From a virus, in the IMG/VR virus record IMGVR_UViG_3300017605_000342, positions 32,001-96,000 of that record: 64,000 nucleotides of DNA, one strand, 5' to 3'. A model generated the notes under the pieces. It had not been told where the DNA came from. It made no database searches and saw nothing but the letters and a program-made list of their open reading frames with translations. Shown here piece after piece: positions 10,984 to 62,042 of this stretch (positions are counted from its first letter, which is position 1; each line of letters opens with the position of its first letter). The position numbers and the translations under genes were made by a program.

Positions 10984-10989
10984 GCAGCC

Positions 10990-11403: not shown

Positions 11404-11405
11404 CG

Positions 11406-28241: not shown

Positions 28242-28324
28242 CCTCTAAGTGTCAGGTATGTTCTCGGTCATATCAGAATACATACTATGATCGTACAAAG
28301 ACTAGTCATATTATCTTACAAGAA

Positions 28325-36388: not shown

Positions 36389-36392
36389 TCTT

Positions 36393-37255: not shown

Positions 37256-37925
37256 CTTGATTATTCCCGACATCCATAACAAGATCAACATTGCGGAAAC
37301 GATCTTAAAAAATTACCTGTACGATCATGCTTGGTTTTTAGGTGACTACTTCGATGACTTTCACGACAGTGCTGAAGAGATTGTTGCCGTCGCTAGTTGG
37401 ATAAAAAAGAAACTACAAGACCCCAAGGTTACGTTGTTGTTGGGTAACCACGACTATCACTATTGGAAGCCGTTCTTACAGAAATGCAGCGGCTACACAG
37501 AAAGAAAGTACGGTGCTATAAGAACCATACTGTCTGAGGTAGACTTTGAGAGTATGCATACTCACGCTTGGGTAGATGGCTGGCTATTGTCTCATGCTGG
37601 CTACTCTAAGTATTACGCAGACCCGATTGAAGGTTTAACGCCCAAAATTACGGCTAAGCTAGATCAAAAAATGCGTGATAGCCACGCTGCCAGAAAATTA
37701 CCAGAACTTTTTTGGTGCGGACAAGATCGTTACGGTGTCAACCACCACTCCGGTATTATCTGGCAAGATTGGTTTACTGCTAGGAAAGTGCCGGGGGTTA
37801 ATCAGATCATGGGACATACTCCCCAACGCAACTGGAGAGAGCATGAAGGTGACTACTGCCTAGACACTGGCTTACATTGTGTTGGGCTACTTGAAGACGG
37901 TAAACTAACAGTAGAGTATCTATAA
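37248..37925 (+). CDS. calcineurin-like metallophosphoesterase
   Basis: PDIH, LGDYFD, GNHD, SHAG and GHT. Confidence 0.88.
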   Translation: MINLIIPDIHNKINIAETILKNYLYDHAWFLGDYFDDFHDSAEEIVAVASWIKKKLQDPKVTLLLGNHDYHYWKPFLQKCSGYTERKYGAIRTILSEVDFESMHTHAWVDGWLLSHAGYSKYYADPIEGLTPKITAKLDQKMRDSHAARKLPELFWCGQDRYGVNHHSGIIWQDWFTARKVPGVNQIMGHTPQRNWREHEGDYCLDTGLHCVGLLEDGKLTVEYL

Positions 37926-37938
37926 CCGGAGACACACT

Positions 37939-38268
37939 ATGAATCTAAACGACCCAAAGACAATATTTGCAGTAAGAACTTTCCTGAAAGATCTACATCA
38001 CACCGATTGGGAAAACCAATGGATAGCAGTGCGTGTGCAGGAACCACATAGATACCACAACGATCAGCCGTATTATGTGGCAGGTCAGTTAGATATTTCA
38101 GACGGTTCCCACACAGCTAGTTTCCATGTGGATTTCAAATCAAAAGATGAAGCAGATAAAATTCTAGAATCACTCAAAATACTTTCTAACACTTTAGTAG
38201 TATTGATTGACAAGATAGAAGAAAGTGGTGACAAACTTTCACAACTTAACGCTGGTCATAGAATCTGA
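37939..38268 (+). CDS. hypothetical protein
   Basis: SD GGAG upstream. Confidence 0.55.
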   Translation: MNLNDPKTIFAVRTFLKDLHHTDWENQWIAVRVQEPHRYHNDQPYYVAGQLDISDGSHTASFHVDFKSKDEADKILESLKILSNTLVVLIDKIEESGDKLSQLNAGHRI

Positions 38269-38900
38269 TGTCTAACACGTGGTTTTCTGCTGACCTACAC
38301 TTGGGTCACTTTAACATCAATAAATATTGCAATCGACCTTTTCTTACTAAAGAACTTTCAGAAGAGCTTGCTATACTAGAAGCGTCCAAACCCAGTGTAA
38401 CTGGTATTGGCCGTATGCACGATATTAAACGAAAAGTTACTTGGACGATGGACGAAACCATTATAGGTAACTGGAACAATGTCATCAAAGATGACGATGT
38501 TGTTTACCTTTTGGGTGATCTATGTTTTGCAGATGTAGATAAAGCACGGGAGTATATCAAAAGACTTAAAGGTAAAATTCATTTCATAGAAGGCAACCAC
38601 GACAAGCCTCTGGCAAACCTGAAGCACCTGTTTGTGTCCTATCGCAAATACAGTGAAATAACAATGGATAATGTCCCTGTAACATTATGTCATTATGCGT
38701 TGCGGGTTTGGAACAAGTCTCACCGGGGAGCCTACAGCCTTTATGGGCACTCCCACGGATCATTGCCTGACGATCCTATGGCTCTTTCGTTTGACTGTGG
38801 AGTAGATACCAACAATTTCTGTCCTTACAGTTGGGAAGATGTTACTAAGAAGATGGCTACAAAGACATGGAAACCCATAGATCATCATGGTCTACACTAG
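38268..38900 (+). CDS. calcineurin-like phosphoesterase (phage type)
   Basis: ADLHLGH, LGD, GNHD, CHY, GHSH and DCGVD. Confidence 0.9.
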   Translation: MSNTWFSADLHLGHFNINKYCNRPFLTKELSEELAILEASKPSVTGIGRMHDIKRKVTWTMDETIIGNWNNVIKDDDVVYLLGDLCFADVDKAREYIKRLKGKIHFIEGNHDKPLANLKHLFVSYRKYSEITMDNVPVTLCHYALRVWNKSHRGAYSLYGHSHGSLPDDPMALSFDCGVDTNNFCPYSWEDVTKKMATKTWKPIDHHGLH

Positions 38901-38917
38901 TATAAAGGAAGTACTTA

Positions 38918-40015
38918 ATGAAAGTTTGTATAGTTCTGGGAACAAGACCGGAAGTAATAAAGTTCACTCCAATAATAGAAGCACTCAAGAAGAACCCAAC
39001 GATTGACTTGAGTGTTATAAGTACCGGGCAGCATACCACATTGCTGGACGTGCTGCCCTTGGATTGCACAGAGACGCTTGTATGGCAAGCACAAGAAGGC
39101 CACACCCTGTCAGGGACCTTGGCCGCAATGCTGTCGCGGTTGGACGTGGCTATACAACGTGTTGCCCCAGACATGATACTTGTTCAAGGTGATACCACTT
39201 CAGCTTTGTGCGGGGCGCTGGCGGCTGCTAATTACCAAATCCCTCTAGGACACGTTGAAGCTGGCTTACGCACATACGACAAGTCCAGCCCCTTCCCTGA
39301 AGAGAACATACGTCGCATCATATCGTCTGTGGCTGACCATCACTTTTGCATCTCCGGTACATCGATGGACAACCTCATAAAAGAGAATGTTGGTGGTAAA
39401 AAATATCTTACAGGGTCTACTGCTATCGACATGGTACACAGAATTAAACACATACATATCCCTAGTCCTAAAAAAACTATCTTACTAACTTTACATCGAA
39501 GAGAGAATTTAGATACTGACCGTGCAGCTAACTACCTGAAACAAATCATACGCTTTTTGAATGAGCATAATGAGGTCGGAAACGACCGAATAACTTGTCT
39601 GTGGGTAACACACCCCAACCCCAAAGTAAAAGCGTTGATCGACAGTTTAGATATTCCTACCAACATGGGGATCGTTGAGGCTGCCGACTACAATCACTTC
39701 ATTCAGTGGTGTAAATGGTCATGGGTTATATGCTCTGACTCTGGCGGAATCCAAGAAGAGAACACTGTATTACAGCGACCGCTGTTTATTCTCAGGGATA
39801 CCACAGAGCGACCGGAAGTCCTAGACTCACCCAACGTAGTGCTGGTGACTCACCCAGAAGCACTGTGGGTATGGCTACAAGACCTGTGGATCAGACCGGA
39901 ACGTTACCACAACAACGGTGTACGCAATGAGTTTAACTCTGTCATACCAGAATCTGAAATCTTTGGTGCGGGCACTGCTGGCGAACGCATCGCAGATATC
40001 ATTGGGACACTATGA
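38918..40015 (+). CDS. wecB: UDP-N-acetylhexosamine 2-epimerase (non-hydrolysing, WecB/WbjD family)
   Basis: GTRPEVIK, TGQH, VQGDT, HVEAGLRT, PEE, TLHRREN, DSGGIQEE and TERPE. Confidence 0.92.
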   Translation: MKVCIVLGTRPEVIKFTPIIEALKKNPTIDLSVISTGQHTTLLDVLPLDCTETLVWQAQEGHTLSGTLAAMLSRLDVAIQRVAPDMILVQGDTTSALCGALAAANYQIPLGHVEAGLRTYDKSSPFPEENIRRIISSVADHHFCISGTSMDNLIKENVGGKKYLTGSTAIDMVHRIKHIHIPSPKKTILLTLHRRENLDTDRAANYLKQIIRFLNEHNEVGNDRITCLWVTHPNPKVKALIDSLDIPTNMGIVEAADYNHFIQWCKWSWVICSDSGGIQEENTVLQRPLFILRDTTERPEVLDSPNVVLVTHPEALWVWLQDLWIRPERYHNNGVRNEFNSVIPESEIFGAGTAGERIADIIGTL

Positions 40016-40251
40016 ACGTAAAGAACACCCTACAAAAGTTATTGCCCTTGGAAGATTTAATTTGGGAACATGAACGTGAATTCCTCAGAGAGTTTTGCCA
40101 CAATGGTGACGACTTGATTGGATTGTATTTCTCAAGCGAGTGTTGTAGATTTGTTTACTTGCTACCTGAAGGACAGCACGTAATTGATACGATAAGTGCT
40201 AATAAACTAGACTGGTGGTTACACTCCATCGGTTTGTACGGGAGAGTTTAA
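40012..40251 (+). CDS. hypothetical protein
   Basis: Coupled ORF. Confidence 0.5.
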   Translation: MNVKNTLQKLLPLEDLIWEHEREFLREFCHNGDDLIGLYFSSECCRFVYLLPEGQHVIDTISANKLDWWLHSIGLYGRV

Positions 40252-40490
40252 TGCCAATATTGGAATTCAAGTGTAAAAAACATGGGCCATTTGAAATGAT
40301 TATTCTTAGCTGGGATAAAGCAGCGGAGTGTAGGCGGGCACCGTGTCCTACGTGCAAACACCACGCCCCTAAGGTAGAGTTTTCAACACCAGCTAGATTT
40401 ATGGGGTGCTTTGGAGAAAACAACGCAACTCCACCCGCACCCTCAAAAAGACATTCAACAAAGAAGATGGACAAAAAAGGAAACACATAA
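40251..40490 (+). CDS. FmdB-like zinc-ribbon protein
   Basis: MPILEFKC..HG.FE...CPTC. Confidence 0.65.
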   Translation: MPILEFKCKKHGPFEMIILSWDKAAECRRAPCPTCKHHAPKVEFSTPARFMGCFGENNATPPAPSKRHSTKKMDKKGNT

Positions 40491-40843
40491 TGAAAACTAA
40501 GAAAACCAAAATTAAGAAGCCAGCTATCAAGAAAGCAACTACCGTAGAATTGCGAGAAGAGAACAAGTCTCTAAAAGAAACGTTAGCGATGGCTGACCGC
40601 ATCATTTTCAATTTGGTACAACAGCATCACGATGATGAATTCAAAGACGGTTATCGTGAATGTTACAGAATTAGCGCACCTGGTTTAGACCTGACGGACC
40701 CTAATGAATACAAGTGGGAAATCGATAGAGATATCCTAAAACAGCAGAACGTAATAGCCGTTGCTAAGTTCTCATTGATTAAACAGATATACCCATTCGA
40801 AAGACCAGAAGATCATGTCTCCCCTGTCTACGGGAAAGGCTAA
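40490..40843 (+). CDS. hypothetical protein
   Basis: TAATG-coupled ORF. Confidence 0.5.
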   Translation: MKTKKTKIKKPAIKKATTVELREENKSLKETLAMADRIIFNLVQQHHDDEFKDGYRECYRISAPGLDLTDPNEYKWEIDRDILKQQNVIAVAKFSLIKQIYPFERPEDHVSPVYGKG

Positions 40844-40846
40844 TTC

Positions 40847-41659
40847 ATGCGGGTGTTCGTTCTTGGTAGTAAAGGCATGTTGGGTCACGTTGTATCAAGA
40901 TATCTCAAAGAACAATCTTATGAAGTCGTAGATGTTCCTAGAGAAAAGCTTGATGCAGCGCAGCACTTAGACCTTATAGACTGGAAGATACGTCCTTGGT
41001 GTTTACAACCCTCAGATGTCGTTATCAACTGTATAGGAATCGTGCCGCAAATAGAATCCGATCTTAAAACAGAACATCAAGTAAATGCGGTGTTCCCACA
41101 CAGTCTAGTAAGATGCGTAGACACACGTGTGATACACATAAGCACCAACTGCGTGTTCTCTGGGATAGAACGTAGAGCTTACACACACGCTGGATATACA
41201 GAGCATGATTTACCAAGACCCAGTAAAAGCTATGGTATAACAAAACTTCAAGGTGAGGTACCCCTGCACTCGATGGTGCTACGCACGTCTGTCATTGGCC
41301 CTCAAATAAAAGGTATGTACGGATTTCATGCTAAGGCACGATTGGGTATGATTACTGACGGTTACGTCGATCATTACTGGAACGGGGTAACCACACTACA
41401 ATTGGCAAAAACCATTGAGTGGATTATCAAAAAGCATCTGTTCAACTTTGGCGTGTACCACATACACTCTCCTAACATAATGTCAAAGTATGACCTTATA
41501 AAAGAGATACTACATGTCAATACCTCACACTGGAACATTAATCCAAAGCTAGCTGGTGGAGAAAATCTTACTCTGTGGTCCTTCCACCAAAATATCAACC
41601 ATCCTAACATAGACTGCACAATTCAGAGGCAACTAAGGGAACTTCATAAATGGTACTAA
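40847..41659 (+). CDS. RmlD-like NDP-4-keto-6-deoxysugar reductase (SDR)
   Basis: VLGSKGMLG, VINCIG, VNAVFPH, HISTNCVFSG, YGITK..GE, LRTSVIG and WNGVTT. Confidence 0.88.
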   Translation: MRVFVLGSKGMLGHVVSRYLKEQSYEVVDVPREKLDAAQHLDLIDWKIRPWCLQPSDVVINCIGIVPQIESDLKTEHQVNAVFPHSLVRCVDTRVIHISTNCVFSGIERRAYTHAGYTEHDLPRPSKSYGITKLQGEVPLHSMVLRTSVIGPQIKGMYGFHAKARLGMITDGYVDHYWNGVTTLQLAKTIEWIIKKHLFNFGVYHIHSPNIMSKYDLIKEILHVNTSHWNINPKLAGGENLTLWSFHQNINHPNIDCTIQRQLRELHKWY

Positions 41660-42471
41660 CACGCATATACGCTGTCCATTACAATCGTTCAGATTTTATT
41701 GAACTACAAAAGCAGTGCTTGGATAGATGGTTTCGTACGCCCTTCGAATACATCGTAATCAACAATGGGCGTGATCCAGATACACGCTCACAGCTAGCAT
41801 ATGCTGCTGCTAAGATCGGCTCTGATATTATTTACACCCATTCAGACACAGGCTTTGACAAAGCAGGTAAGCACCATGCAGACGCCCTCAACCAAGCTTG
41901 GAAAGAGCATATAACCAAGCACAACGACTTGGCTATGGTTCTAGACGGCGATGTGTTCTTGTTGGACAACTTCACTATCACAGATATACTATCTCAAACA
42001 AAACCAATCTTCGGAGTACCACAACATCGCAAGGTGTTCAACTATATTTCACCCACGCTGGTAGGAATGGATCTAGCAAAGATAACATTACTAGAAGAAA
42101 TAGATTGGGAAGGAAAAGAGATAGTACCTAAGGTACACTTGGACACTGGTGGAGGGTTGCATCCGTGGTGTCATGCTGGCGTTGTACGCCCCATCTCGAA
42201 TACATGGCATATCAAAGCAGACAACAACAATCTACACACGCTGCCGGACGCTGTAATGACTACGTATAGAGAAGGATTCGATGTTGAACTATACGGTGAC
42301 AAGTGGCTGCACTACTGTAGATCGTCCGGTTGGGACTGGCCCACAGAAGACTACGTACATCTAAAGTCAGTTTGGCTACGGAATTTCCTTGACATGCGGC
42401 TAGCGTGTGATATACAATTGAAGTACACTGGCTTCAATATCGGAGTCAATGACTATTTGGGTTGGGTATAA
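41650..42471 (+). CDS. GT-A-fold glycosyltransferase-like protein
   Basis: FIELQ, YIVINN, HADAL, LDGDVF and DTGG; paralog of 31246..32049. Confidence 0.6.
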   Translation: MVLTRIYAVHYNRSDFIELQKQCLDRWFRTPFEYIVINNGRDPDTRSQLAYAAAKIGSDIIYTHSDTGFDKAGKHHADALNQAWKEHITKHNDLAMVLDGDVFLLDNFTITDILSQTKPIFGVPQHRKVFNYISPTLVGMDLAKITLLEEIDWEGKEIVPKVHLDTGGGLHPWCHAGVVRPISNTWHIKADNNNLHTLPDAVMTTYREGFDVELYGDKWLHYCRSSGWDWPTEDYVHLKSVWLRNFLDMRLACDIQLKYTGFNIGVNDYLGWV

Positions 42472-42561
42472 GGAAGTATGGGAGAACCAGGCAATCCACT
42501 GCCCCGCTAAGGCAAGGTCGCCCCACCGGGCGTGCATGTTCGAATCGTGCTACTTCCGCCA
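42472..42561 (+). tRNA. trnS: tRNA-Ser(GCU)
   Basis: GGAAGTA/TACTTCC acceptor, TGCC-CCGCTAA-GGCA, long variable arm CGCCC/GGGCG, G73, CCA; C33. Confidence 0.87.
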
Positions 42562-42566
42562 CATAT

Positions 42567-42896
42567 ATGAAAATGTTCGAAGACGAATTTCCCTGCATGG
42601 GACTATCACCACGTAGCTGGTCAGAAACCTCAGATACGACTATAGCTGTAACTAACTACAAAAAACAACTACTAGAAAAACCATCAATGATTCCCTTTGC
42701 AAAATTTACTAGATCAAACGGCGCTACTATATACGTCAATGCTAACAACATAGCTTACCTAGTATCAGTAGGAGAGACTCAGGTACGACTTGTCTTCGTG
42801 GGCGGTCCAGAGCCTGCCAACGATACAGTTATCGTACAAGGAAGTATTAGCCAAGTTGCCGACAGCCTTAGGTCCATAGGAGAAAAACATGTGTAA
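42567..42896 (+). CDS. hypothetical protein with FlbD-like C-terminal half (alternative start 42687)
   Basis: FTRSNGATIYVNANNI...IVQGSISQV. Confidence 0.5.
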   Translation: MKMFEDEFPCMGLSPRSWSETSDTTIAVTNYKKQLLEKPSMIPFAKFTRSNGATIYVNANNIAYLVSVGETQVRLVFVGGPEPANDTVIVQGSISQVADSLRSIGEKHV

Positions 42897-42922
42897 ATGC
42901 GGCCACACTCTTCTAGAACATA

Positions 42923-43228
42923 ATGAGTTATCACACATTCTTTCATGCCCAAGGCTGGGGTGTAGTCAGTGTTCCTGTGAAGAATACTCCCCAAAGGATA
43001 CTAATGAGTAAGTTCTTCTGGCAGTTTATGGGAGACTTTACAGATATCCTAGATAAAGCTTTTAACTTCACAAGCGAAGTCTTTACGACCGTGCTTCAAA
43101 TAATTGGCATAGCTGTGTTGGGTATTTGTGCCGCAGCAATGTTAGCTATACCATTTGCGTTATATTGTGTGTACAGAGGAATAAAATGGCTGTTCGTTGG
43201 ATCGGTGGCTGGTCAAAACCAAGATTAG
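42923..43228 (+). CDS. membrane protein (start uncertain)
   Basis: Long hydrophobic segment VLQIIGIAVLGICAAAMLAIPFALY. Confidence 0.5.
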   Translation: MSYHTFFHAQGWGVVSVPVKNTPQRILMSKFFWQFMGDFTDILDKAFNFTSEVFTTVLQIIGIAVLGICAAAMLAIPFALYCVYRGIKWLFVGSVAGQNQD

Positions 43229-43245
43229 CCACCAACAAAAATCAG

Positions 43246-44232
43246 ATGAAAGTACTTATCACAGGTGGGGCTGGGTTCTTAGGTACTCAGCTAACTAAGC
43301 ACTTCCTAGCACAAGACAACGAAGTAGTTGTAGCTAGTCGTGACGAAGCTAAGCACTGGAAGCTTAAACACTCGGTAGATAACGACCCACGCTTAACTAC
43401 CTTTGTCTGGAATGCCGCCGACCAGCATTACCTGAACGTCACTGGTATACTTCACTCCGTAGAGCCTGACGTTATCATCATGACTCACGCACTGAAACGT
43501 ATTGACGTGTGTGAAGCACAACCGGACGAGGCTTTAGAAATCAACACAGTTGCAGTACAACGGTTGCTGGAATACGTCATGTATTTCAAACCCAAGAATC
43601 TAAAAAACGTTGTGCTGATAAGTACAGACAAGGCAGCAAACCCGATATCCACATACGGCACCACAAAACTTCTGGCAGAACAGTTTATGCGCCACGCCCA
43701 ATCCGCGATGGGCAACCAAACAAAGTTTGTTGTAGTACGCTATGGCAATGTACTAGACAGCACTGGTAGCGTCATACCATACATCAAGAACCGTATTGGC
43801 TTTGGGCAACCCTTACAGATCACAGACCCAACCATGACTCGGTTTATCTTCTCATCCAGAGATGCTGTGGATATGGTTGTGCATATGATTACGAACAATG
43901 AATCCGGCCTGTGGATTCCCGGTAGGATACCGTCAATGAACATAGGCCATCTGTTTGAGCTATATTCTGAAAAGTATAGCCGAGCCGTTGAGCACGGCCC
44001 TCAAAGAGCATTCCCAGAAAAACCACATGAAGTCCTCAATACGGAGCACGAACAAATACAGTGGCTCCCGTACAAATGCCCTGTACCCATACGGGGTGTC
44101 TCACGGCAAGATTTTACTTGCCCCTATCAAGAGCTAAAGGTAGGTCGTGCTCAACAAATCATTTCTTCAGAAGACGTGCAAATAACAAAACAAGAACTCA
44201 AACTTCTACTAGAAAGAGAAAACTTACTGTGA
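43246..44232 (+). CDS. UDP-GlcNAc 4,6-dehydratase (PseB/WbjB/CapD-like, soluble)
   Basis: VLITGGAGFLG, SRDEAK, ALK, ISTDKA, YGTTK, VRYGNV..S.GSVIP, TDPTMTRF and EKPHE. Confidence 0.9.
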   Translation: MKVLITGGAGFLGTQLTKHFLAQDNEVVVASRDEAKHWKLKHSVDNDPRLTTFVWNAADQHYLNVTGILHSVEPDVIIMTHALKRIDVCEAQPDEALEINTVAVQRLLEYVMYFKPKNLKNVVLISTDKAANPISTYGTTKLLAEQFMRHAQSAMGNQTKFVVVRYGNVLDSTGSVIPYIKNRIGFGQPLQITDPTMTRFIFSSRDAVDMVVHMITNNESGLWIPGRIPSMNIGHLFELYSEKYSRAVEHGPQRAFPEKPHEVLNTEHEQIQWLPYKCPVPIRGVSRQDFTCPYQELKVGRAQQIISSEDVQITKQELKLLLERENLL

Positions 44233-52124: not shown

Positions 52125-53306
52125 CTAGTTGTCATAAATCGTTACGCCTCTGCGTATATAGATGTTCTCCGTTCCAGGATTGTCAATCGTTATATAAGGG
52201 ATTAAATAAATGTCGGCGCTCATACTAGCTTTACCACTATTACCGATTTGATTATCCCTGATTACGCCACCTTGTGACGGGTTTAAACCACCAGTAGCAA
52301 TACCATAACCAGCGGCGGTTGCTTCTGGATTGTCCTCTCCAACACCAACAGTTCTTGTAGAGCTATATGGAGAATACTGTGTATCAGAACTTCTGTACGC
52401 TCTAATTCTATACGAGTAAATACCGCCGGTCACCACGTTAGTATCTGTAAAGGTTTGAACATCAGCCGCAGTAACAAATAAAGTTTCGAAAGTTCCACTG
52501 GACCCTATTTTACGTTCAATAATATAAGCGGTTTCTGTAGTTGCATTATCAACCCAAATCAATTTTACTTGCGGGTTACCCGACACAAACTCAGCCACGG
52601 CTGATGAGAAAGTCGGAGAAGTGAGATTTGACACCACCAAACTATCGGTGGTTATAGCACCGGAAGCTGCATAAGTAGACTCTCCGTATTGATTGACTGC
52701 TTTAACTCGGTACAAGTAAGAAACATCGTATGACAGCCCAGTATCAGAATATGAAACAGAATCTGCTGGCAGACTAGTTACTGTTCTCCACGTAGCATCA
52801 ACGTTGCTAGATCTCTGTAAAATGAAGTTACTCTCATTGTTAGAATTATCATTCCACAAAAGATCAATAGTGTTTGCAGTCGAGGCCCCAGTCAGGTTAG
52901 ACGGTGGCAACGGTGGTGCCGTATCAGTACCTGGATCTGGCACAGGATCGGGCGTAAAAGCTGGCAATGTAATTTCCGCAATATTAGAATAAGTACTATA
53001 TCCGCCAGCATGTTGATTTCTGACTCGGTATCTATAGACAGTGGAAGGGGTAAGCGTACGGTCATACCCATCCAAAAAATAAGCAAGTCCAGTGCTTGTC
53101 AAAACATACGGGTCCACAAGGTCCGTGGCAAACTCCGTAAAGCCACTACACGCAGCACCTGTACAGAACTCCAAACTGAAGAACACGCTGTTAGCCGTAG
53201 CTCCAGGTTCCCAGACTAAATAAACCACAAGTCTCTGACCAATAGTAAACTGTTTAACAGTGTAGCTTGCTTCTAAATTATTAGGTGGAAAATCTAATAT
53301 ACCCAT
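52125..53306 (-). CDS. tail-associated protein with three FN3-like repeats and a C-terminal beta-helix-like segment
   Basis: PSNL..W.DNS.NE..F...R...Y.D..L....Y.YRVKA.N..G.S repeats; ends GYGIATGG...GGVIRDNQIGNSG. Confidence 0.75.
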   Translation of the reverse strand: MGILDFPPNNLEASYTVKQFTIGQRLVVYLVWEPGATANSVFFSLEFCTGAACSGFTEFATDLVDPYVLTSTGLAYFLDGYDRTLTPSTVYRYRVRNQHAGGYSTYSNIAEITLPAFTPDPVPDPGTDTAPPLPPSNLTGASTANTIDLLWNDNSNNESNFILQRSSNVDATWRTVTSLPADSVSYSDTGLSYDVSYLYRVKAVNQYGESTYAASGAITTDSLVVSNLTSPTFSSAVAEFVSGNPQVKLIWVDNATTETAYIIERKIGSSGTFETLFVTAADVQTFTDTNVVTGGIYSYRIRAYRSSDTQYSPYSSTRTVGVGEDNPEATAAGYGIATGGLNPSQGGVIRDNQIGNSGKASMSADIYLIPYITIDNPGTENIYIRRGVTIYDN

Positions 53307-53311
53307 ATCAC

Positions 53312-55756
53312 TTAGTCAAATTGTAGAGGATAACCATGTCCATTATTTTTAATCTGATTATCACTAATAATGAAGTCTTTCAAACCATCAATCAAAATAC
53401 CGCTAGCTCCGTTACTGCAAACAACATTGTCTTGTATTGTGACACCCTCAGTAAGCGCTCCTTGTTGAGCCGCTCCCAAAATTCTAATACCATCAGAACC
53501 ATTACGACAGAATATGTTATCCGTGATTGTTAGACGTGCATCCAACCCCGCCGCTAAATCATAGATGTCTTGGTCAAAGGCCATGTCTTTTTCAACGAAC
53601 TCCATGCCATAGTCTGTGAACCAAACAGCGTTACCCATACCAGGTGTAACTAAATCGTCGAGGTTGCCGCACAAACCATCATCAGTTGGTAAAGTACCAA
53701 CAACAGTTCCGGGGATAGACGTTCCGTAGTTATTCGGTTCTGGAGAGGCACCAGTAATCTCCAAAAAGAATCTAGTAACAGCGACGTTTGTATCTGGAGG
53801 AAGTGCACCACAAGCTGCAAAGGCTCTTATTTCGGATGCTGTAAGAGCACGAGCAATCACTGCAACTCTTGCAATCTTACCGTTAAAGGCATGCTGTGGA
53901 GTCAAGCCGTACATGTTTATCCCGATACCACACGCAACTGAGCCGTTAGGTGCTATAGCATGACCACCACTTCTAGTACCAACCAGTTGCACGCTGCCTG
54001 GAGTAAACCCAGCATAAAAATCAGCAATAACAGGAGCACCAGAAAAAGTAATATTAATACAAACAAACAACGGCGTACCAGCCACCAAAAAGTTTGACGG
54101 TGCACCACCAGCAGTTGTAAGTGGAACCTTCAGAGAATAGTCTGTCCAGTTACCTGCCACTAGTGGCTCTGTTGACCAAAATAATTCTAGTTCATTTGAA
54201 GCAGTTATTCGCATAGAATAACCAGAGTCATATCTATTTCCAAGAATCGTCCCTAATACTCCTATACTGGCAGGTTCAATCCACGCGCACTGACAAGAAG
54301 GGTTATTGAATAGTCCCTGCCCAGTTAGTTTAATGTAGTTAGATACAGACCCATCCCACACCCTAGATAACCCAACATCCGCCGGCTCATCCGCTTCAGC
54401 ACCAGTTGCCCCAGTTAGGTCTGAAATATTGTTACCGTCAATAGTAACTTCAGTACTTGCCCAACATGCCGCACCTCTAAAGACACTGCAATTTTTACTG
54501 TAACAGCCAGTAACGTGCACACCGCGACACACATCCAAGTTAATCAAAGCTGTGTCTCTGTCGTTGCTGACGGCGTATTTCAGCGCGGTGTCAAATTTAA
54601 CGTTATCAAAGTTAACATAAGATGAAAAACCTATTTGAAACTTTTCACCAATTCCATGAGCAATTGTTAAATCTTTAACTGTAAGTTTACTTACTTTATA
54701 TGCCCGCAATGCCCACAAAGACTTGGCTTGCTTCGCCGCATCTTCTGTCTCGTCCTCTGTAAATTCTCCGTTAGTGTCATAGATACCTTCTAGGTCGATA
54801 GTACCTGTACCGTCAATGACAATATCATGATCACCAGAATCTATGTCTCCAACAAAAGAGTTTCGTGCTTCCAAAACAGTTATCTGTCCGTTAGGATAGT
54901 TCTGGATTGACGCAAATAATACCCGCAAAGTGCCGTTAACTCTAAAATGTACGCCACTGTCTATCCACAAACAAACCCCAACTGGTCCGTAATATGTTCC
55001 ATCACACAGATCGTCTTCAACAGGTGCAATATTGGCTATCACGCTACTTGGAACAAGAACGCGGGTTCTTCCCGATCCTGCTAAAACGTTTGCTCTCGCT
55101 TGATCCAGTGCTTGTTGGATTTTGGCGGTTTCATCACCAACTCCAGTAACTCCTAAATCTCGTACCACATCAATCCAGTCATCTGTAAAAGGAACAACAT
55201 CTGGGTCACTTTCACTAGGAAAAACAGACTGTGCAATAAACGTAGAAAATTCTCCGAGCGTGTTATAAAACAATGCGCCCAAAGGAATAGGCTCTATTAC
55301 AATAACCGCTTGTGGCACAACAATGGGTGGCGGCGTCGGTGTCGGTGGTATATCCGGTGGTGCAGGAGTGCTGTTTAACACCGTAACAGTTATAGTACTT
55401 GTTGTAAATGTATTACCAGCAAAGTCTGTAACTACCGCAGAAATTGTATGGGGGCCGTTAGTAGTTGTTGCTGTATTCCACGGCAACGAAAAGCTCGATG
55501 AAATCGAAGTTATAGGCCCACCAAGAGGAGCTGAATCTAGATAAAGTTGCACATTGGCCACTCCAACATCGTCGGTGGCAGTACACGTTACTGTAACACT
55601 GCCAGCTAGAGTAGCTCCGTTACTTGGTGCACTGATGGACCCAGTAGGCGCAGTAGTATCAGGAGTGCCACCGCCACCATACTCGTAGGCACCGATATCC
55701 CACGTTGACCCCTGAGGTCTTACAACTCCATCAAAATCTGTAGTAAATAAAGGCAT
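53312..55756 (-). CDS. tailspike/adhesin: anchor-Q half motif + Ig-like (Big_7) + pectin-lyase-like beta-helix with LamG-like insert
   Basis: DFDGVVRPQG..WDIGAYEY; DTTAPT..I.AP.NGAT..G; DETAKIQQALD; FNGKIARVAVI.RALT..EI; I.DN....NG..GI rungs. Confidence 0.75.
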   Translation of the reverse strand: MPLFTTDFDGVVRPQGSTWDIGAYEYGGGGTPDTTAPTGSISAPSNGATLAGSVTVTCTATDDVGVANVQLYLDSAPLGGPITSISSSFSLPWNTATTTNGPHTISAVVTDFAGNTFTTSTITVTVLNSTPAPPDIPPTPTPPPIVVPQAVIVIEPIPLGALFYNTLGEFSTFIAQSVFPSESDPDVVPFTDDWIDVVRDLGVTGVGDETAKIQQALDQARANVLAGSGRTRVLVPSSVIANIAPVEDDLCDGTYYGPVGVCLWIDSGVHFRVNGTLRVLFASIQNYPNGQITVLEARNSFVGDIDSGDHDIVIDGTGTIDLEGIYDTNGEFTEDETEDAAKQAKSLWALRAYKVSKLTVKDLTIAHGIGEKFQIGFSSYVNFDNVKFDTALKYAVSNDRDTALINLDVCRGVHVTGCYSKNCSVFRGAACWASTEVTIDGNNISDLTGATGAEADEPADVGLSRVWDGSVSNYIKLTGQGLFNNPSCQCAWIEPASIGVLGTILGNRYDSGYSMRITASNELELFWSTEPLVAGNWTDYSLKVPLTTAGGAPSNFLVAGTPLFVCINITFSGAPVIADFYAGFTPGSVQLVGTRSGGHAIAPNGSVACGIGINMYGLTPQHAFNGKIARVAVIARALTASEIRAFAACGALPPDTNVAVTRFFLEITGASPEPNNYGTSIPGTVVGTLPTDDGLCGNLDDLVTPGMGNAVWFTDYGMEFVEKDMAFDQDIYDLAAGLDARLTITDNIFCRNGSDGIRILGAAQQGALTEGVTIQDNVVCSNGASGILIDGLKDFIISDNQIKNNGHGYPLQFD

Positions 55757-56149
55757 CTATTACATCACTCTAAATGTACGATCACTAACATCAAACACAT
55801 CTGGATATTCTACACTACTTAGTTTAAGAATACATGTGCTAGATGATGGTCCTACTACCCACCAGTTTGCACTACCTGAGTTAAAAGTGTTAAATAGAAA
55901 CTGATAACTTGAACCATTATTTCTAGATAATTCAATCTTGATTGTAGAACTTTCTGGTAAGTTTGTAGAATTCCAGTAGAAACTTTTCCAACGTCCAGTC
56001 TTCAAACGTTCTCCACCATTTGGAGAAATAATAGAAATCGTAGGAGTTACAGGTTGCGGGTTATCGAAGATAAATTCTAACGCACCGATGTCCCAAGCAA
56101 CTCCCTGCGGCCTTAAAACACCATCGAAGTCTGTATTGAATAAAGGCAT
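55679..56149 (-). repeat. diverged direct repeat: 78-nt 5' ends of two adjacent genes (56072..56149 and 55679..55756)
   Basis: Hand alignment gives 58/78 nt and 20/26 aa identical. Confidence 0.9.
55760..56149 (-). CDS. small protein: anchor-Q half motif + Ig-like domain
   Basis: DFDGVLRPQG..WDIGALEF, then I.IISPNGGE...W...IKIELS..NG...D.SD..F. Confidence 0.7.
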   Translation of the reverse strand: MPLFNTDFDGVLRPQGVAWDIGALEFIFDNPQPVTPTISIISPNGGERLKTGRWKSFYWNSTNLPESSTIKIELSRNNGSSYQFLFNTFNSGSANWWVVGPSSSTCILKLSSVEYPDVFDVSDRTFRVM

Positions 56150-56163
56150 AAGTTTTCCCTCCG

Positions 56164-57162
56164 TTAGTTAATCACAACCCCTTGGTCGATTGCGTTTGTG
56201 CTTGCGGCAGTCAGGTGGAAATCCCCACCAGCAGCGTTTACAAAGTGTGGGTCTGTGGTCAAGTTATTCGATAAAACCGTTCCTGATCCGTTGTTGGTAA
56301 TACCGCCACTTTGGTACACGATGTTGTTCTTTACCCTAGCTCCTGCACTATCTGCGTTCATGACTATTCCAGTAGGATTGTTGTAGATTGTGTTATTATA
56401 TATCATAGCGTTAGTCGGATTGTTCCAAGCTACTTCTATTCCGCGTGAATTGCCGTAGATCAAGTTGTTATAAACTAAAATGCTATCGCCAGAAGTTACG
56501 ACCACAGCAGCCGCATTACCTCCAGTGCCATTGCTATAGATCCTATTGTTCCTTATAATGTTTCCATCCGTCCGCTCACCATAGCCATTGTAAGTCTGTA
56601 CACCACAGCCAAAGTTAGAGTAGATCGTACATCCATCAACGATGTTGTGTTGACTGCCTAAGTAAAAGCCGTGATCTTGTGGGGTATTGCTTATAGTATT
56701 GTGCCCATTATGGTGTACGATGCAGTCGATAAACTCATTATAACCGTCAGCGGCGTGCGTGCAATGAACCCCTTGACGCTGAGCGTTCTTTATCTCACAC
56801 CCAATAACACGGATATGGTTCACACCACTGTTAATGGCAACAACTTCATCAGATGTGTTTTGACCATCCAGACTTAGGTTCTGAAAAATCACATACTTTA
56901 TATAAGAAGCCGTCATGTTCAGCACGCGCATATTGACTGTTTCTCCAGAATAGGCGGAAATCAGTGGTGCGTTGCTCCAAGACGTTCCGGTAGGAATTGT
57001 TTGAGAGTTGGCATCAATGCTCTCGTTATATGTGCCAGAGCGAATATAGAGCGTATCCCCAGCAACCATTACGCTGATGCCTTTGGCTATAGTTTGGAAA
57101 GGTGATCCGATAGTTCCTGGGTTACTATTATTACCTGTTGTTGCTACGTAGTATATTGCCAT
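56164..57162 (-). CDS. right-handed parallel beta-helix protein (DUF1565/NosD-like; possible glycan lyase/depolymerase)
   Basis: YYVATTGN..NPGT..SPF.TI, GDTLYIRSGTY and NN.IY.N rungs; ends DPHFV...GDFHL...AIDQG. Confidence 0.8.
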   Translation of the reverse strand: MAIYYVATTGNNSNPGTIGSPFQTIAKGISVMVAGDTLYIRSGTYNESIDANSQTIPTGTSWSNAPLISAYSGETVNMRVLNMTASYIKYVIFQNLSLDGQNTSDEVVAINSGVNHIRVIGCEIKNAQRQGVHCTHAADGYNEFIDCIVHHNGHNTISNTPQDHGFYLGSQHNIVDGCTIYSNFGCGVQTYNGYGERTDGNIIRNNRIYSNGTGGNAAAVVVTSGDSILVYNNLIYGNSRGIEVAWNNPTNAMIYNNTIYNNPTGIVMNADSAGARVKNNIVYQSGGITNNGSGTVLSNNLTTDPHFVNAAGGDFHLTAASTNAIDQGVVIN

Positions 57163-60100
57163 TATTCAGTTTCTCCTACGTTATCGTAAGTAAAATTTAG
57201 TCCTGGGCCATCCTCACTGGCACCTAGAACAATGTCTGAATGATTATAAAAACTCGTACCTACAAACGGAAGACACACTCTCAAGTTCAAATCTACTGTA
57301 TTGATGTTGTGTACTACCAAATTGTAATTAAGAATTGTTGCGGCTGAGACAGCAGCAGGCACTCTTGGAAGATCTACTACCGTAGCAAGAGGCTGCCAAT
57401 CTCCAGTCAACAAATAGTCTTGACGCGAGTAAAAACCATACGGCTGAATAGACTCTCCGGGGGCCGCGTCATCTTTGATGTTCAAACGAACATACAAACC
57501 GTCGTCTGCTGTAACATCAATAGCCCGTATCCAAATAAAGAAAACCGAAACGCCCTTTTGCATAGGAATTTCTGTTTCAAAATTGATAAACCCGCTGTCG
57601 AATATTGTTGCCCCACCTGGTAAAAAAACAGTGGCCCCTTCATACTGGAATCCATCGTTCGTTGGAGTAATGTTATAAGGTCCTGGGTTATCCACACCGA
57701 TTGGTATATACGGAGAAATAGCTGTGCCCACACCACGACTATCAGTGAAGACATTGGAACTCAACGATAGTAAGTTGTTGAATGTTGCAACTAGACCGTA
57801 TACATCACTACTTAGTAAAATTGTTCCGGCAGTAGTGATAGGTAAGTTAGCCTTAAACACTGGGTGTTTAATAGTACCGCCCTTTGCAACAATGCTAGAC
57901 GGGTTACCAGGAATTTCTGGGAATACAATACGGATTCCAGATGAGAACCTAGAATAATTTCCGGCTGCATCATACGCTCGAACAAAACAAATTGTTTCGC
58001 GGCGGCGGGCAATCTTAAATTCGGAGGCAGTTGTTTGTCCGTTTGTAATCGTGTCATAGACTAGGTAGTTGGTGTTGTTCGCATCTCCCCAACCTTGGTC
58101 TGCATACCTAAGCTCGAAGCCACCACCAACAGGTGGTGCTTGACCGATAGAAATTACGAAGTAGTTTGGGTCATCCTCGTCTACAGTAAGACCAGACACA
58201 AAAGTATCTGACGGTACAGAAGTCCATGCTTTTAGACGTAAGTCAACTAGAACATCTATAGCAGTCGCTGGCAACAACTCAGACGTACCACCATATGTCA
58301 GCGTTAGTGTAATTGAATTAAACAGCAATGACAGTGCATTCGTTGTTTCTATGATTTCAGCAAGATCGGCGGCGGTTGGTAACTCTGCCGTATCCGTTGG
58401 AGCAAATGGATTTGGTGGAACTTTCAGGCTAGCCAAGAATTTCTTAACTTGGTCGATCTTACCAAAAGTAACTGTGTGCTTAACAATGTCTTTTGATTTT
58501 GAATCAATCAAAGACTCTACTGAAGTAATAACTTCAGACTGAGACACAGGCAACCCAGCAGGCAAATTTGCAAACCTCAAAATAGTACCAGGACGAGGCA
58601 CACCCGTAAACTCTACAGTACTAAACTGCTCGTAGGTACCCGCATAGTGCTGGTATGAACCTTCGGCAACCAATGCAGCCGCTGCCATTTCGCACTCCAC
58701 AGATGTTCGTGGTAAAGGACTCAAATCTTTTTTGGTAATAGTACGCAACCCGTTGTCACCCCACACTGCTGCTTCTGATGTTATCAAATCAGCATTCTGG
58801 GCACGTCCTATGGCAATGCCGGCACGACGGTAGCGCAACCGCATGATTTGACCTGGTGTGGGTGTGTTGGCAGATAGCTTTGTACTGTCCTTAAAGAATG
58901 TTAGTGTTGCATCTCCTGCGTTATACAGGGTTGATCCTAGAATATTTCCAGAATCTATACGCCCTTGACGTGATGTAATAATGGTAGCAACAGGCCCCAT
59001 ACCATCGTAAGAATCTATTTCATTAGGTCCAACCTGTTTTGGCGTCCATGTTATAGAAGTAAAATCTTCTTCAATAGGAGCACCAGTACCAATATCAAAT
59101 TTGTTACGTTCAGGATACCACAGATCCTTGTCAACAGTTGACAATGACACTTGCATTGGCACACTGATTGTAATGTTTGATAGTGTTATATGCAAGTTGT
59201 TAGAAACTACAGGAACATACGCGGCAAAAAATTGTCCAGCACCTACTCCCGTGTTTGACCCCGCATGTGTCCAAATAGTTTGATTAGTTGTGGGCCTTCC
59301 GGTAGTTGCATCAATCTCTGTAATGATCGTTCTATATACCGGAATATCGGCAACAGTATTACCACCAAAACTACCCAAGGTTCCAGTGATAGTACGAAAC
59401 AGGTATTCCCTGTCGTGCCTGTTTATATTCTGAAAGGTTACTAGTGTGCGTAAAATGTATCTTTTGTTATCAGCTAACGTGCTGACCGTATAGGTATCCG
59501 ACTGCACTACCCCGTTAATGATTGGATGTAAGTCAGTGCCAACTACCTGAATACCAAACACACACCCCGCCATCGAAGAGCTTGGAGTACTTGTCCACAA
59601 TGACGCAATAATACCAGAACCACTATCTGTCACAAAGTCAAACTCTCCGTGAGTTAGACGTAAATTACCTTGCAAAGGAATCAATGCCTTAGATTGTAGG
59701 TACACTCCGTAAGCATCTGCCGCGTTGCCAATAATGTTTAGATACCCGTTGTCCACTCGGATAACGTTGTTAACGGAATCTACTTCAGTCCAAATGTTAC
59801 TATCAACTGCTGCCCCAGAAAAAATGTCATCTAACAACAAGGCACTGTCAACGCCATACACGGAAGAGGCCATCGGAAATGCATTAGTTAAACCGTCACC
59901 TACCCAAAATTCATTCATCAATCCTTGCGGTTCAACGTCTCCCAGCACAATGGCGTCATTAATAACTGGGTCTGTTATTGGACCGATAGACAAACGCCCC
60001 GGCGTGAAGTGTGGATTATGTTTACCTGCCCAGCCTGTGGCAGTACCTGTACCATTGCCCACAGAGTCTGTTAGCGTGAAATTGGACGCACCCACACTTT

Positions 60101-60860
60101 CAATAAACCAATTGCCAACGGCAGCGCTTTTAGTCCCATCAGCAAGTACGTGGTCAGATATGGAAATACAGTCTCCGTTGGCCCGTCCATGTGGTGTCAT
60201 TGTTGTCACAACAATTGGGGTACCACCAGTACTTGAAGCTATTCGCACACGACTACTCTGATCCGAATGCCCATTAATAATTAGTGTTGCGGGCGTTACG
60301 TCTTGTCGCTCGTAGTACAACTTAAAGTCATTTGTCCAGAAACGATAGTACGCGGCTGCTGCAAAGTCTTTGACAATCTGTCCAAAGGTTGTTGTAGGGT
60401 CAACGAAATAATAAGGTACCAACTGCCCGTCTTCGACAGCAGTAACATCAAACTTTCCCGGTGCAATACGGTTAGCCAAGTCTTTAATAATCGCGCCTTG
60501 TGTTTGGTTGATGTACACAGGCAGAATACCTAATGGAGCAAGATTCAAAATATAGCTATCGTCTGTTCCGGTAAAATGCCATGACCAGGTAGGTTGATCG
60601 GTAGGTGAATATTTCCCCACGTACTCTAACTGCGGCGCGTTTGTAACGAAGCCAGTCCAGTAAGTAGGATCTGAGTCAGTACCTAAAACAAAGTAACTAC
60701 CACGACGCGGTAGGACAAATCCACTACCCCACGCAGCCATATCCAAGTCAATCGTTGTAGGTTCGTTGACTGATTGCTTTATGACAGGTGACCCTGTTAA
60801 ATATTTGATGTAATCAATACCGGCCAACGTGGGGTCGGTAGAAGTTAATGTTAGTACCAT
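57162..60860 (-). CDS. large tail protein (hub/central fibre-like, multi-domain)
   Basis: 1232 aa downstream of the tape measure gene; beta-rich; internal VVTT..PHG..NGD.I.I (FCCH-like) insert; FN3-like VRAYD..GNYS. Confidence 0.7.
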   Translation of the reverse strand: MVLTLTSTDPTLAGIDYIKYLTGSPVIKQSVNEPTTIDLDMAAWGSGFVLPRRGSYFVLGTDSDPTYWTGFVTNAPQLEYVGKYSPTDQPTWSWHFTGTDDSYILNLAPLGILPVYINQTQGAIIKDLANRIAPGKFDVTAVEDGQLVPYYFVDPTTTFGQIVKDFAAAAYYRFWTNDFKLYYERQDVTPATLIINGHSDQSSRVRIASSTGGTPIVVTTMTPHGRANGDCISISDHVLADGTKSAAVGNWFIESVGASNFTLTDSVGNGTGTATGWAGKHNPHFTPGRLSIGPITDPVINDAIVLGDVEPQGLMNEFWVGDGLTNAFPMASSVYGVDSALLLDDIFSGAAVDSNIWTEVDSVNNVIRVDNGYLNIIGNAADAYGVYLQSKALIPLQGNLRLTHGEFDFVTDSGSGIIASLWTSTPSSSMAGCVFGIQVVGTDLHPIINGVVQSDTYTVSTLADNKRYILRTLVTFQNINRHDREYLFRTITGTLGSFGGNTVADIPVYRTIITEIDATTGRPTTNQTIWTHAGSNTGVGAGQFFAAYVPVVSNNLHITLSNITISVPMQVSLSTVDKDLWYPERNKFDIGTGAPIEEDFTSITWTPKQVGPNEIDSYDGMGPVATIITSRQGRIDSGNILGSTLYNAGDATLTFFKDSTKLSANTPTPGQIMRLRYRRAGIAIGRAQNADLITSEAAVWGDNGLRTITKKDLSPLPRTSVECEMAAAALVAEGSYQHYAGTYEQFSTVEFTGVPRPGTILRFANLPAGLPVSQSEVITSVESLIDSKSKDIVKHTVTFGKIDQVKKFLASLKVPPNPFAPTDTAELPTAADLAEIIETTNALSLLFNSITLTLTYGGTSELLPATAIDVLVDLRLKAWTSVPSDTFVSGLTVDEDDPNYFVISIGQAPPVGGGFELRYADQGWGDANNTNYLVYDTITNGQTTASEFKIARRRETICFVRAYDAAGNYSRFSSGIRIVFPEIPGNPSSIVAKGGTIKHPVFKANLPITTAGTILLSSDVYGLVATFNNLLSLSSNVFTDSRGVGTAISPYIPIGVDNPGPYNITPTNDGFQYEGATVFLPGGATIFDSGFINFETEIPMQKGVSVFFIWIRAIDVTADDGLYVRLNIKDDAAPGESIQPYGFYSRQDYLLTGDWQPLATVVDLPRVPAAVSAATILNYNLVVHNINTVDLNLRVCLPFVGTSFYNHSDIVLGASEDGPGLNFTYDNVGETE

Positions 60861-61675
60861 TACTTATACGTATATCTTGTAGGTAAATTAAAGACTCTAG
60901 GTTTAAAATTTAAACCATACTTATTCTGCCACTCCCACACTGCACTGACGTGGCGATAAACTTTGTAAAATTCATCGATCTCTCCACGAGAGATGTAGTG
61001 TGTTGCAAACCCTTCAATGCCCTTGCGGTTTTGTGATCCAGTGTGCAAGACTAGCGCACCAACCAAGTCCTTGTACAATCCCATTTCTTCCAGCATTTTT
61101 ACATACGCCGACATCTGCAAAAACGCCGTGTCAGATACGGACTTACCAGACTTAATGTCTACAACGTACAAACCTTCAGGTAAGCTTAGTGGTTTACTGC
61201 CGTTGACTTCGTAAGTACCACTCTTAATACTCACCACTCCGTCAGTAGTACCAGCTTCTCGGTACTTCAGGGAATAAACCATACGCTCGGATTCTAGAAT
61301 AGTAGGTTTTACAACCTTCACAAACTGCACCAGTCTCCAGAATGCTAGCGCCTCGTCTTGGTCTTCTATGAAATATCTAGGCTTGGTGTCTACGACATTT
61401 GGTTCGTTATCATACTGCCCGTCTAGGTTAACAAAGACCTCGCCACCTTTGACGTATGTTTCAAACGCTTTGTGTATACTTGACCCCTTTTGCTGAGACT
61501 CTTTCAGGCGTTTGTCAGCCAACTCGTTACCAATATCACCGCGCCATTTGGCAAGATACGGTGCACCAACAGCGGATAATTTGGTTGTAACTGAGGGTAA
61601 GTAAACCTGACCTTCGCTATCTAAATCAATACGGTAGTAATGCTCGTTATACCATGAAACTTGTTTTACAGTCAA
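60860..61675 (-). CDS. PD-(D/E)XK exonuclease (phage Cas4/RecB-like)
   Basis: LPSVTT, L.KWR, GS.IH, E, AGTTDG, VDIKSG and QMSAY. Confidence 0.85.
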   Translation of the reverse strand: MTVKQVSWYNEHYYRIDLDSEGQVYLPSVTTKLSAVGAPYLAKWRGDIGNELADKRLKESQQKGSSIHKAFETYVKGGEVFVNLDGQYDNEPNVVDTKPRYFIEDQDEALAFWRLVQFVKVVKPTILESERMVYSLKYREAGTTDGVVSIKSGTYEVNGSKPLSLPEGLYVVDIKSGKSVSDTAFLQMSAYVKMLEEMGLYKDLVGALVLHTGSQNRKGIEGFATHYISRGEIDEFYKVYRHVSAVWEWQNKYGLNFKPRVFNLPTRYTYK

Positions 61676-61682
61676 TGGGCCT

Positions 61683-62042
61683 CTATTCCAGCAATTCTAG
61701 CTGTTTCAATAAAGCTTCTGCTTTTTCTTTCCCTATTACTTCCAACAACTTACGTCGCTTTGTATCATTGCCTTTTGTCTTAAATAGCAGCAACAGCAAC
61801 ATGTCAAAGATAGTCTCTGATAAGCGGACGTTTTGGAACGAATTGCAATCCAACGTGAGGGTGAATCCTAACAGATCCTCGATACGGTCTGTCAGGAATT
61901 CACTATAATTGAGATCGCAGTTTTTGAAGGTAAGTCCACGTAGGTTCTTGAATTTACAGTTAACCAACAGAGCATTGTCAAAGTCTCTATTTACAGCAGT
62001 TAGATCTTCATCAATATGTTGTTCAGTGAACACACGTAACAT
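61683..62042 (-). CDS. short pentapeptide-repeat-like protein
   Basis: DFDNALLVNCKF.NLRGLTFKNCDLNYSEF periodicity. Confidence 0.45.
   Translation of the reverse strand: MLRVFTEQHIDEDLTAVNRDFDNALLVNCKFKNLRGLTFKNCDLNYSEFLTDRIEDLLGFTLTLDCNSFQNVRLSETIFDMLLLLLFKTKGNDTKRRKLLEVIGKEKAEALLKQLELLE

Follow-up and report, generated by a model that had tools for sequence, protein, structure and literature searches.

A choice-of-anchor Q module split between tail genes of a soil phage: a probable fold-complementation joint for a beta-helix head

A split module in a tail gene block

Why would a phage carry one conserved motif as two halves on separate tail genes, with the second half present twice? We analysed a 64,000-nucleotide stretch of a virus (IMG/VR record IMGVR_UViG_3300017605_000342, positions 32,001 to 96,000; the window). 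This soil phage encodes one module as two halves on separate tail proteins, and related phages cut the same chain elsewhere; most likely the halves join and thereby mount on the virus a head that binds or cuts sugars.

The head gene A matches PF13229 (E 3.6e-16), is leaderless and begins at a YYV motif (the N-terminus is longer in 92 of 104 homologues); the proteins P0003 and P0018 end at the same point as gene A (Table 1). A first-pass annotation of the window had claimed that gene A stops inside a motif whose second half opens both following genes, and these gene ends and starts were confirmed on the sequence, B1 and B2 both starting with MPLF[N/T]TDFDG. The stop, ribosome-binding site and start cassette that it described exists before B1 (GGAGG) and is missing before B2, which lies directly behind TAA TAG, so that only B1 has a clear ribosome-binding site. 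Promoter counts did not exceed chance, and the junctions contain no terminator-like site. One short, shallow contig spans the B1-B2 junction without gaps. Loose contig ends at 56257 and 57156, each a weak signal from a single contig, may come from a strain in which a different head allele is followed by the same Q tail.

The proteins of the joint are encoded in a tail gene block, have no leader and show weak tail PHROG matches, the only kind of match returned for the putative role of B2 as a trimeric tailspike. A LamG-like domain is inserted within the B2 beta-helix, in the middle of which the reading frame stops; the conserved 24-aa motif of B2 comprises residues 157-180. The tail of gene C resembles the remaining rungs of this beta-helix and possibly forms a further joint; Pfam had no match to the last 66 aa of the gene C product. 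The K domain of B1 had no Pfam match and is probably Ig-like, its fold being read from the sequence pattern; it terminates many accessory proteins of the clade and also one secreted cellular-type protein. The gene of the 1232-aa probable hub protein follows a 2467-aa tape-measure-like gene and stands immediately upstream of A or B2 in every relative compared. Profile searches returned no family match for this protein, a candidate virion anchor of B2; a profile of the hub's FN3 end hairpin and the B2 motif at residues 157-180 matched in neither direction.

Table 1. Features of the split locus in the window (position 1 is the first letter of the window).
Feature	Position	Strand	Description
Tail-tip hub protein (probable)	57162..60860	(-)	1232 aa; coupled translationally to A via TAATG
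Gene A, beta-helix head	57162-56164	(-)	332 aa; ends ...AIDQGVVIN-stop in Q first half
Q first half and stop codon	56164..56253	(-)	residues 304-332 of A
Spacer	56150..56163	(-)	14 nt; GGAGG ribosome-binding site; out of frame
Gene B1	56149-55760	(-)	129 aa; Q second half (56149-56072) and ~95-aa K domain
Gene B2	55756-53312	(-)	814 aa; Q second half, Big_7, 24-aa motif, beta-helix
Q second half on B2	55679..55756	(-)	residues 1-26; 29.8 bits
Big_7 Ig domain of B2	55379..55651	(-)	approximate limits; intact in window
Gene C	52125..53306	(-)	393 aa; three FN3 repeats and conserved ~65-aa tail

The rejoined halves and their conservation

The annotation had held that the pieces belong to one choice-of-anchor Q motif, and the profile search that it proposed bears this out. 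The joined 59-aa peptide scored 36.4 bits on the model NF041518 (profile positions 17-57; curated cut-off 25 bits); alone, the first half had no match on this model and the second halves scored 24.0 (B1, just under the cut-off) and 29.8 bits (B2) over positions 35/36-57. In the window, and likewise in the relatives L001 and L007, the motif breaks at profile position ~34; in L013 and most homologues it is continuous. The annotation had claimed that removing 23 nt restores typical spacing, and the removal does give the G-to-D distance of exactly 8 residues seen in 67 of 72 intact homologues. Because these 23 nt include an Asn and a Met codon that are translated, the split product is two residues longer. 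No relative of the Q module was found by PDB sequence searches.

The first 26 residues of B1 and B2 share 20 residues, 10 of which differ synonymously in their codons, a count that we reproduced. Their halves are 76% identical as protein and share 55 of 75 bases, with a longest shared DNA run of 11 nt. Across 28 pairs of second halves, pS was 0.56-0.98 and pN 0.05-0.22 (pN/pS 0.06-0.29), and among the strain differences listed for the first 31 codons of B2, 12 of 12 were synonymous. Every second half is conserved at the level of protein rather than DNA, in agreement with the suggestion that both copies in the window are maintained as protein. Such selection proves function, not a partner, and it would also fit simple gene fission, after which the halves would be independent, A functioning with an incomplete cap and the second half serving a purpose of its own (e.g., as calcium-binding loop or N-terminal stabiliser) with no binding through it.

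Structural models of head and cap

Pel9A (PDB 1ru4; PL9) is the best structural match of head and cap, at 18-25% identity. The model of homologue P0009 matched 1ru4 in Foldseek with an E value of 2.3e-12 and a TM score of 0.68, and the Q module model superposed on the C-terminal part of Pel9A (VIA) with Z 15.3 and an rmsd of 1.8 over 128 residues. In intact P0009 the Q module was modelled with pLDDT 94-98. Read through its natural in-frame spacer, L001 gave a Q module with pLDDT 77-93, in a model that leans on intact homologues and shows compatibility of the halves with one fold, not binding. By these models the Q motif caps a Pel9A-like right-handed beta-helix at its C-terminal end, and structurally 'anchor' is a misnomer for it. 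The homologue models have the beta-helix with Pel9A-type ends of polysaccharide lyase family 9, and gene A stays below the family cut-offs (PelN, 22.5 against 740; PF22842, 23.5 against 25.2). The modelled cap consists mostly of loops and bridges with few strands, which makes the affinity of a 26-residue piece uncertain.

Fused, moved and double cuts in related phages

The comparison set was small, about ten uncultured phage loci. Among them, the chain of beta-helix, Q, Big_7 and cargo occurs as one gene or cut in Q, in Big_7 or in both. The annotation had named related phages with the same split as a check, and L001 and L007, assembled independently, stop at the same Q residue with differing spacer sequences. 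The spacer measures 14 nt in the window (out of frame), 12 nt in L001 (in frame) and 14 nt in L007. Among the contig pieces listed, none bridged positions 56150-56163, which would fit an assembly or sequencing artefact; the recurrence of the cut with different spacers and the clean stop, ribosome-binding site and start contradict this explanation and leave it a negligible chance. In L001 and L007/L008, three genes each begin with the Q second half. The uncut form exists as well: L013 has A, Q and B2 fused in a two-headed 811-aa polypeptide, and the secreted protein P0196 runs from A and Q through Big_7 to FN3 and K without interruption.

In L003, L005, L008 and L011 Big_7 is cut between strands C' and E (junctions TAATG, TAGTATG and ATGA). 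Q is whole in L003, L005 and L011, each with one or two Big_7 first halves and two second halves; in L011 a different enzyme carries the first half, and in L003 and L005 another head gene comes after a first half. The orphan Big_7 half was predicted to be unstructured by a model whose alignment is shallow there. L008 combines both cuts, with an 83-aa adaptor made of just two half domains. In the window, the Big_7 loop has 13 residues instead of the usual 11, a length shared by 9 of 235 other copies; re-fusion was considered as a possible origin of the intact domain.

The order is permuted in L018. Its hub is a different one and ends with the first FN3 strand; the remaining part of this FN3 (58% identical to the intact copy in the hub) is provided by a 138-aa adaptor that closes with the Q remainder (27.9 bits). 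Gene A comes after the adaptor and stops in Q ~20 residues earlier, so that each Q piece stands at a C-terminus. The same early stop is seen in five leaderless homologues, and the gene context of this cut comes from the L018 contig only.

Cut type did not follow the head tree, and cut types did not form clades on the B2 tree. B2 is present without any A or Q in L012 and L017, and L002 has a B1 gene on a 3-kb contig, remote from all tail genes. There are more second halves than first halves; with the L002 copy, this suggests that some second-half copies may have another role. Searching viral contigs with A alone revealed no related loci, annotated phage records contained no match, and in the representative search the adaptor profile retrieved nothing but multi-repeat Big_7 proteins. 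The single GTDB pattern match (L016) was rejected as a chance antisense match; the pattern is too clade-specific to exclude cellular splits.

How the halves may be joined

We consider it probable that the Q halves are a non-covalent fold-complementation joint that attaches a host-derived beta-helix head to tail proteins. Gene A would be made with an unfinished C-terminal cap, which the ~26 N-terminal residues of B2 or B1 would complete, tethering the head to its partner. With B2, itself conserved and probably hub-anchored, A would rebuild the two-headed protein that is one polypeptide in L013; with B1, it would rebuild a shortened protein of beta-helix, Q and K, as in secreted cellular source proteins. 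Heads and cargos could then be exchanged as separate genes, provided that the halves match. We infer binding, virion display, glycan activity and partner choice for A, B1 and B2. An incomplete domain with its complementary piece on another protein is found for Q and, in relatives, for Big_7 and FN3; a donated piece that completes an Ig-like sandwich sheet is found for the relatives' Big_7 and FN3 cuts only, not for Q. The docking tag that the first-pass annotation had proposed gains comparative support from the conserved cut, selection, the fused form, alternative cuts, the adaptor and the reversed order.

Gene fission as described above is helped by the orphan second half of L002, and by L012 and L017, whose B2 without A or Q makes the head dispensable in the clade. 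Against it, B2 has a second half only where the genome has a matching first half, the half type always matching; half Ig domains and a two-half adaptor can hardly fold alone; and at each of three different cut points the resulting pieces complement each other exactly. We regard fission as unlikely.

The annotation's own alternative, translational bypass, and likewise read-through or a frameshift, would make one chain of the reading frames. The L001 spacer is in frame behind TAG, and frameshift-added Ig domains in phages, reportedly described by Fraser et al. in 2006, would count in the same direction. The Q-cut spacers and Big_7 junctions listed above have no common frame, however, most second halves are not next to a first half, and in L003 and L005 a head gene intervenes, all of which speaks against such joining and renders it very improbable. 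The reversed order of L018, with both halves C-terminal, means that neither bypass nor splicing nor ligation can give a linear chain there.

Covalent joining by a split intein, ligase or trans-splicing could draw on the Asn at which A ends in all three late-cut phages; at the other cuts the last residue is Thr, Val or Ser, and between the halves, which abut stop and start, there is no intein sequence or Hint match. Unlike in fractured genes with split inteins (PMC2677866), no intein halves flank the break here. DNA recombination between the repeated halves would have at most 11 consecutive identical bases to work on, no shufflon-like DNA repeats lie at the crossover point, and the contigs examined, at low depth, contained no joints. 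Covalent or recombinational joining is accordingly given very little chance.

A version of the complementation joint, rather than an alternative to it, is that the pairing is fixed: in the virion B2 alone would receive A, and B1 would be a cap-completing chaperone or a carrier of free, non-virion A. B1 is adjacent to A behind a strong ribosome-binding site, no virion anchor is known for it, and K ends a secreted cellular-type protein. However, the B1 and B2 halves are 76% identical, and the combination of a long tail protein with K-ending proteins that have the same half recurs for both joint types; we see this version as possible without favouring it. Still bolder, and somewhat doubtful, is the idea that one glycan-active head could go onto several carriers per infection, among them the tail protein, K-domain proteins and lectin-bearing stalks, a protein-level alternative assembly giving mixed virions, with joints invented repeatedly by cutting captured domains (Q at two points, Big_7, FN3).

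If the complementation joint is correct, gene fission would have turned into a means of docking, with related phages holding the chain fused, cut once, cut twice or permuted, and the origin of modular receptor-binding assemblies would be directly testable. The models would give 'choice-of-anchor Q' a structural meaning as a Pel9A-like beta-helix cap. Short half-domain ORFs in phage tail loci should probably be read as adaptors rather than debris, and protein engineering might use the 26-residue half and the split Ig domain, both candidates for natural tag-and-catcher pairs.

Comparison with known systems

Searches of mostly open-access papers for the Q domain and for split-domain docking in phage tails gave no direct report, and we found no earlier split Q module; the principle itself is already known. 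Chaperone-usher pili use fold completion as glue in donor-strand complementation, polymerising Ig subunits with a chaperone. Branched tailspikes (CBA120 TSP1-4, G7C gp66/gp63.1) carry several glycan-active beta-helices on one anchor, and there whole domains dock. Secreted beta-helix proteins with choice-of-anchor Q (NF041518), e.g., of Nitrospira sp. (HQY58799.1) and Bacteroidota (TAL56740.1), have the same motif, spacing and beta-helix family; non-phage Q homologues are continuous and mostly leader-bearing, whereas those of these phages are split and leaderless.

In the Pseudomonas podophage A1002, one ancestral tail protein is encoded by two genes as the split nozzle gp39/gp42, with mutually complemented strands (PMC13730344); unlike the present locus, this is a core structural, fixed 1:1 pair with no repeated half and no exchangeable cargo. 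BppU-BppA of Lactococcus phage Tuc2009 is a solved precedent for the fold-complementation principle in a phage baseplate: an accessory carbohydrate-binding protein has one domain completed by a ~25-residue segment of a baseplate protein and is thereby hung on the tail (PMC4742702). There, a beta-hairpin completes an Ig-like sandwich sheet with one partner; here, the cut lies in a beta-helix cap, the same half is found on two or three genes, and relatives have the cut at other places (late Q, early Q, Big_7, both) or the chain fused.

Genome setting and the split Q module

The phage genome holding the window is a single contig of 160,874 bp without a match among annotated phage records, and the few sequencing runs that have words in common with it come from metagenomes of soil or rhizosphere. 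In the tail block, the probable hub gene is followed by A (beta-helix head, 332 aa), B1 (129 aa), B2 (814 aa) and C (393 aa). All split-motif features described in the first-pass annotation were found in the window sequence: A ends with the first half of a choice-of-anchor Q module, and B1 and B2 both open with the second. The HMM search proposed there gave the joined peptide 36.4 bits on NF041518 (curated cut-off, 25 bits). The loop at the cut has 8 residues in 67 of 72 intact homologues of A; the window's two halves cover all 8 and carry an extra Asn and Met. The second halves of B1 and B2 do share 20 of 26 residues, 10 of these with different codons, and their longest identical base run is 11.

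The split is real and conserved. In related phages, A homologues P0018 (locus L001) and P0003 (L007) end at the same residue as A. Each of these loci has three genes starting with the second half, including a 1031–1046-aa LamG/FN3 stalk that the window lacks. Across 28 pairs of second halves, pS was 0.56–0.98 and pN 0.05–0.22. A strain ~95% identical to the window has 12 listed differences from it within B2 codons 1–31, every one of them synonymous. Sequence comparison thus indicates that the cut is conserved and the second half is under selection.

Two tail-block genes between the tape-measure-like gene and the hub encode a conserved 119-aa protein and, on reading the sequence, a putative PD-(D/E)XK nuclease (271 aa) that is absent in L003 and L012. 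A long ORF run similarly reads as putative glycosyltransferases, methyltransferases and nucleotide-sugar epimerases.

Coordinates of features in the window and in related contigs
Feature	Location	Strand
Tail block, in order: tape-measure-like gene (2467 aa), probable hub (1232 aa), A, B1, B2, C		minus
271-aa and 119-aa genes	window 60860-62042	
Hub FN3-like domain, end hairpin	57162-57260	
Domain K	window 55760-56050	
B2 motif, residues 157-180	window 55217-55288	
LamG-like insert in B2	window ~53620-54390	
B2 end, mid beta-helix	window 53312-53400	
Gene C end	52125-52325	
Long ORF run	window ~28300-44200	
LamG-like, hub and gene C	L001:2-700 and 9585-11522	
LamG-like, gene C	L003:13359-15290	
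~340-aa paralogue	L001:6419-7441, L008:7309-8331, L011:6581-7594	
Lone B1 homologue	L002:167-550	
Beta-helix end with intact Q	L019:540-2165	minus

Fold of Q and the beta-helix head

The Q region of the modelled intact homologue P0009 has a pLDDT of 94–98, and the structure nearest to this model is pectate lyase Pel9A. The L001 spacer is in frame by chance, and the modelled junction folds across it, its beta-helix end and Q superposing on Pel9A residues 268–425 (Z 15.3). Because both models match Pel9A, Q can be identified as the cap that closes the C-terminal end in this family of beta-helices. A scores under the PL9 cut-offs and is a candidate enzyme only. Most A homologues have a longer N-terminus, with the phage versions beginning right at the beta-helix; named homologues are from Nitrospira and Bacteroidota. 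An 1817-aa secreted-type protein runs unbroken from beta-helix through Q, Big_7 repeats (an Ig domain) and FN3 to K, an unnamed ~95-aa probable Ig-like domain.

Relatives with fused or relocated cuts

In L013, A, intact Q and the B2 core form a single 811-aa protein, and in L012 and L017 the B2 core stands without head or Q. In L003, L005 and L011, Q is whole or missing, the first-half gene stops mid-Big_7 and two later genes open with the remainder. Modelling places this cut between strands C' and E, which, with sheets assigned as is general for the Ig fold, leaves either side with strands from both sheets. L003 and L005 each have two heads and two acceptors; in L011 a different enzyme, a pectate-lyase-like protein, bears the first half. 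On the B2 tree the nearest relative is L008, where both cuts occur together with an 83-aa gene consisting solely of Q second half and Big_7 first half. In every locus, the half type on B2 is that of the first half present. Another viral contig, L019, fuses intact Q to a different cargo domain, and a ~340-aa paralogue in L001, L008 and L011, absent from the window, combines a shortened beta-helix start, intact Big_7 and K.

Five leaderless A homologues, including the closest (P0002, 71%), end ~20 residues earlier in Q; their gene context comes from one contig, L018. Its hub, of a different type (weak PF09931 match), breaks off once strand one of an FN3 is complete. The remainder of this FN3, which shares 58% identity with the intact copy in the hub, is encoded by the following 138-aa gene, whose product has the Q remainder at its C-terminal end (27.9 bits). 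A comes next. The two Q pieces thus each occupy a C-terminus, with their order reversed, and only by association of finished proteins can the module be rebuilt. Late-cut, early-cut, Big_7-cut and intact forms interleave, with modest support, on the tree of heads, which fits repeated exchange of heads with cellular genes as well as across joint types.

A putative split-domain joint

Translational bypass, the alternative raised in the first-pass annotation, or frameshifting would join the ORFs into one chain, but fails on variable spacer frames, non-adjacent partners and the reversed gene order of L018. Sequences defining inteins or, for DNA cassettes, the defining repeats are missing. The best explanation is a probable non-covalent split-domain joint, its main rival being that the halves function independently. 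Fold complementation as glue is the simplest account of such a joint: A is predicted to bind any protein that provides the absent part of its cap, and so to be held there.

Since B2 is found in all clade members and adjoins the hub, it is a likely candidate for the virion anchor. Its 24-aa motif, kept in 10 of 10 homologues and N-terminal in minimal forms, resembles by eye the hairpin that ends the FN3-like domain of the hub, where it may anchor B2. In a profile comparison neither element hit the other. K, found at the end of two or three accessory proteins in each phage (window, L001, L003, L005, L007 and L011) and also of the secreted cellular-type protein P0196, could serve as a second anchor or bind the host surface. 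B1 may be a second virion carrier, a chaperone or the partner of a free A form; an orphan B1 gene in L002, amid unrelated small genes and with no tail gene nearby on the 3-kb contig, keeps all three roles in play.

In B2 the beta-helix is broken off midway, at a conserved point. The last ~65 aa of gene C, likewise conserved, look like additional rungs and had no match in a Pfam search; B2 and C possibly form an additional joint in all relatives (L001, L003, L012 and L013, for example). The LamG-like domain acts as a mobile insert, lying in the B2 beta-helix in the window and L008; in L001 it sits within both the hub and gene C, and in L003 within gene C.

Comparison with known systems

The principle of fold complementation is already known, as seen in Tuc2009, where a 25-residue BppU hairpin fills in a BppA sheet (PMC4742702), and in the nozzle of A1002, which the products of two genes rebuild (PMC13730344). 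A literature search on the Q domain or such a split found no paper. New in comparison with Tuc2009 and A1002 are the beta-helix cap as joint, several acceptors per donor, a single chain cut independently at three or more points, with intermediates that are fused or cut twice, and reuse of the same Q module by a phage whose tail differs (L018).
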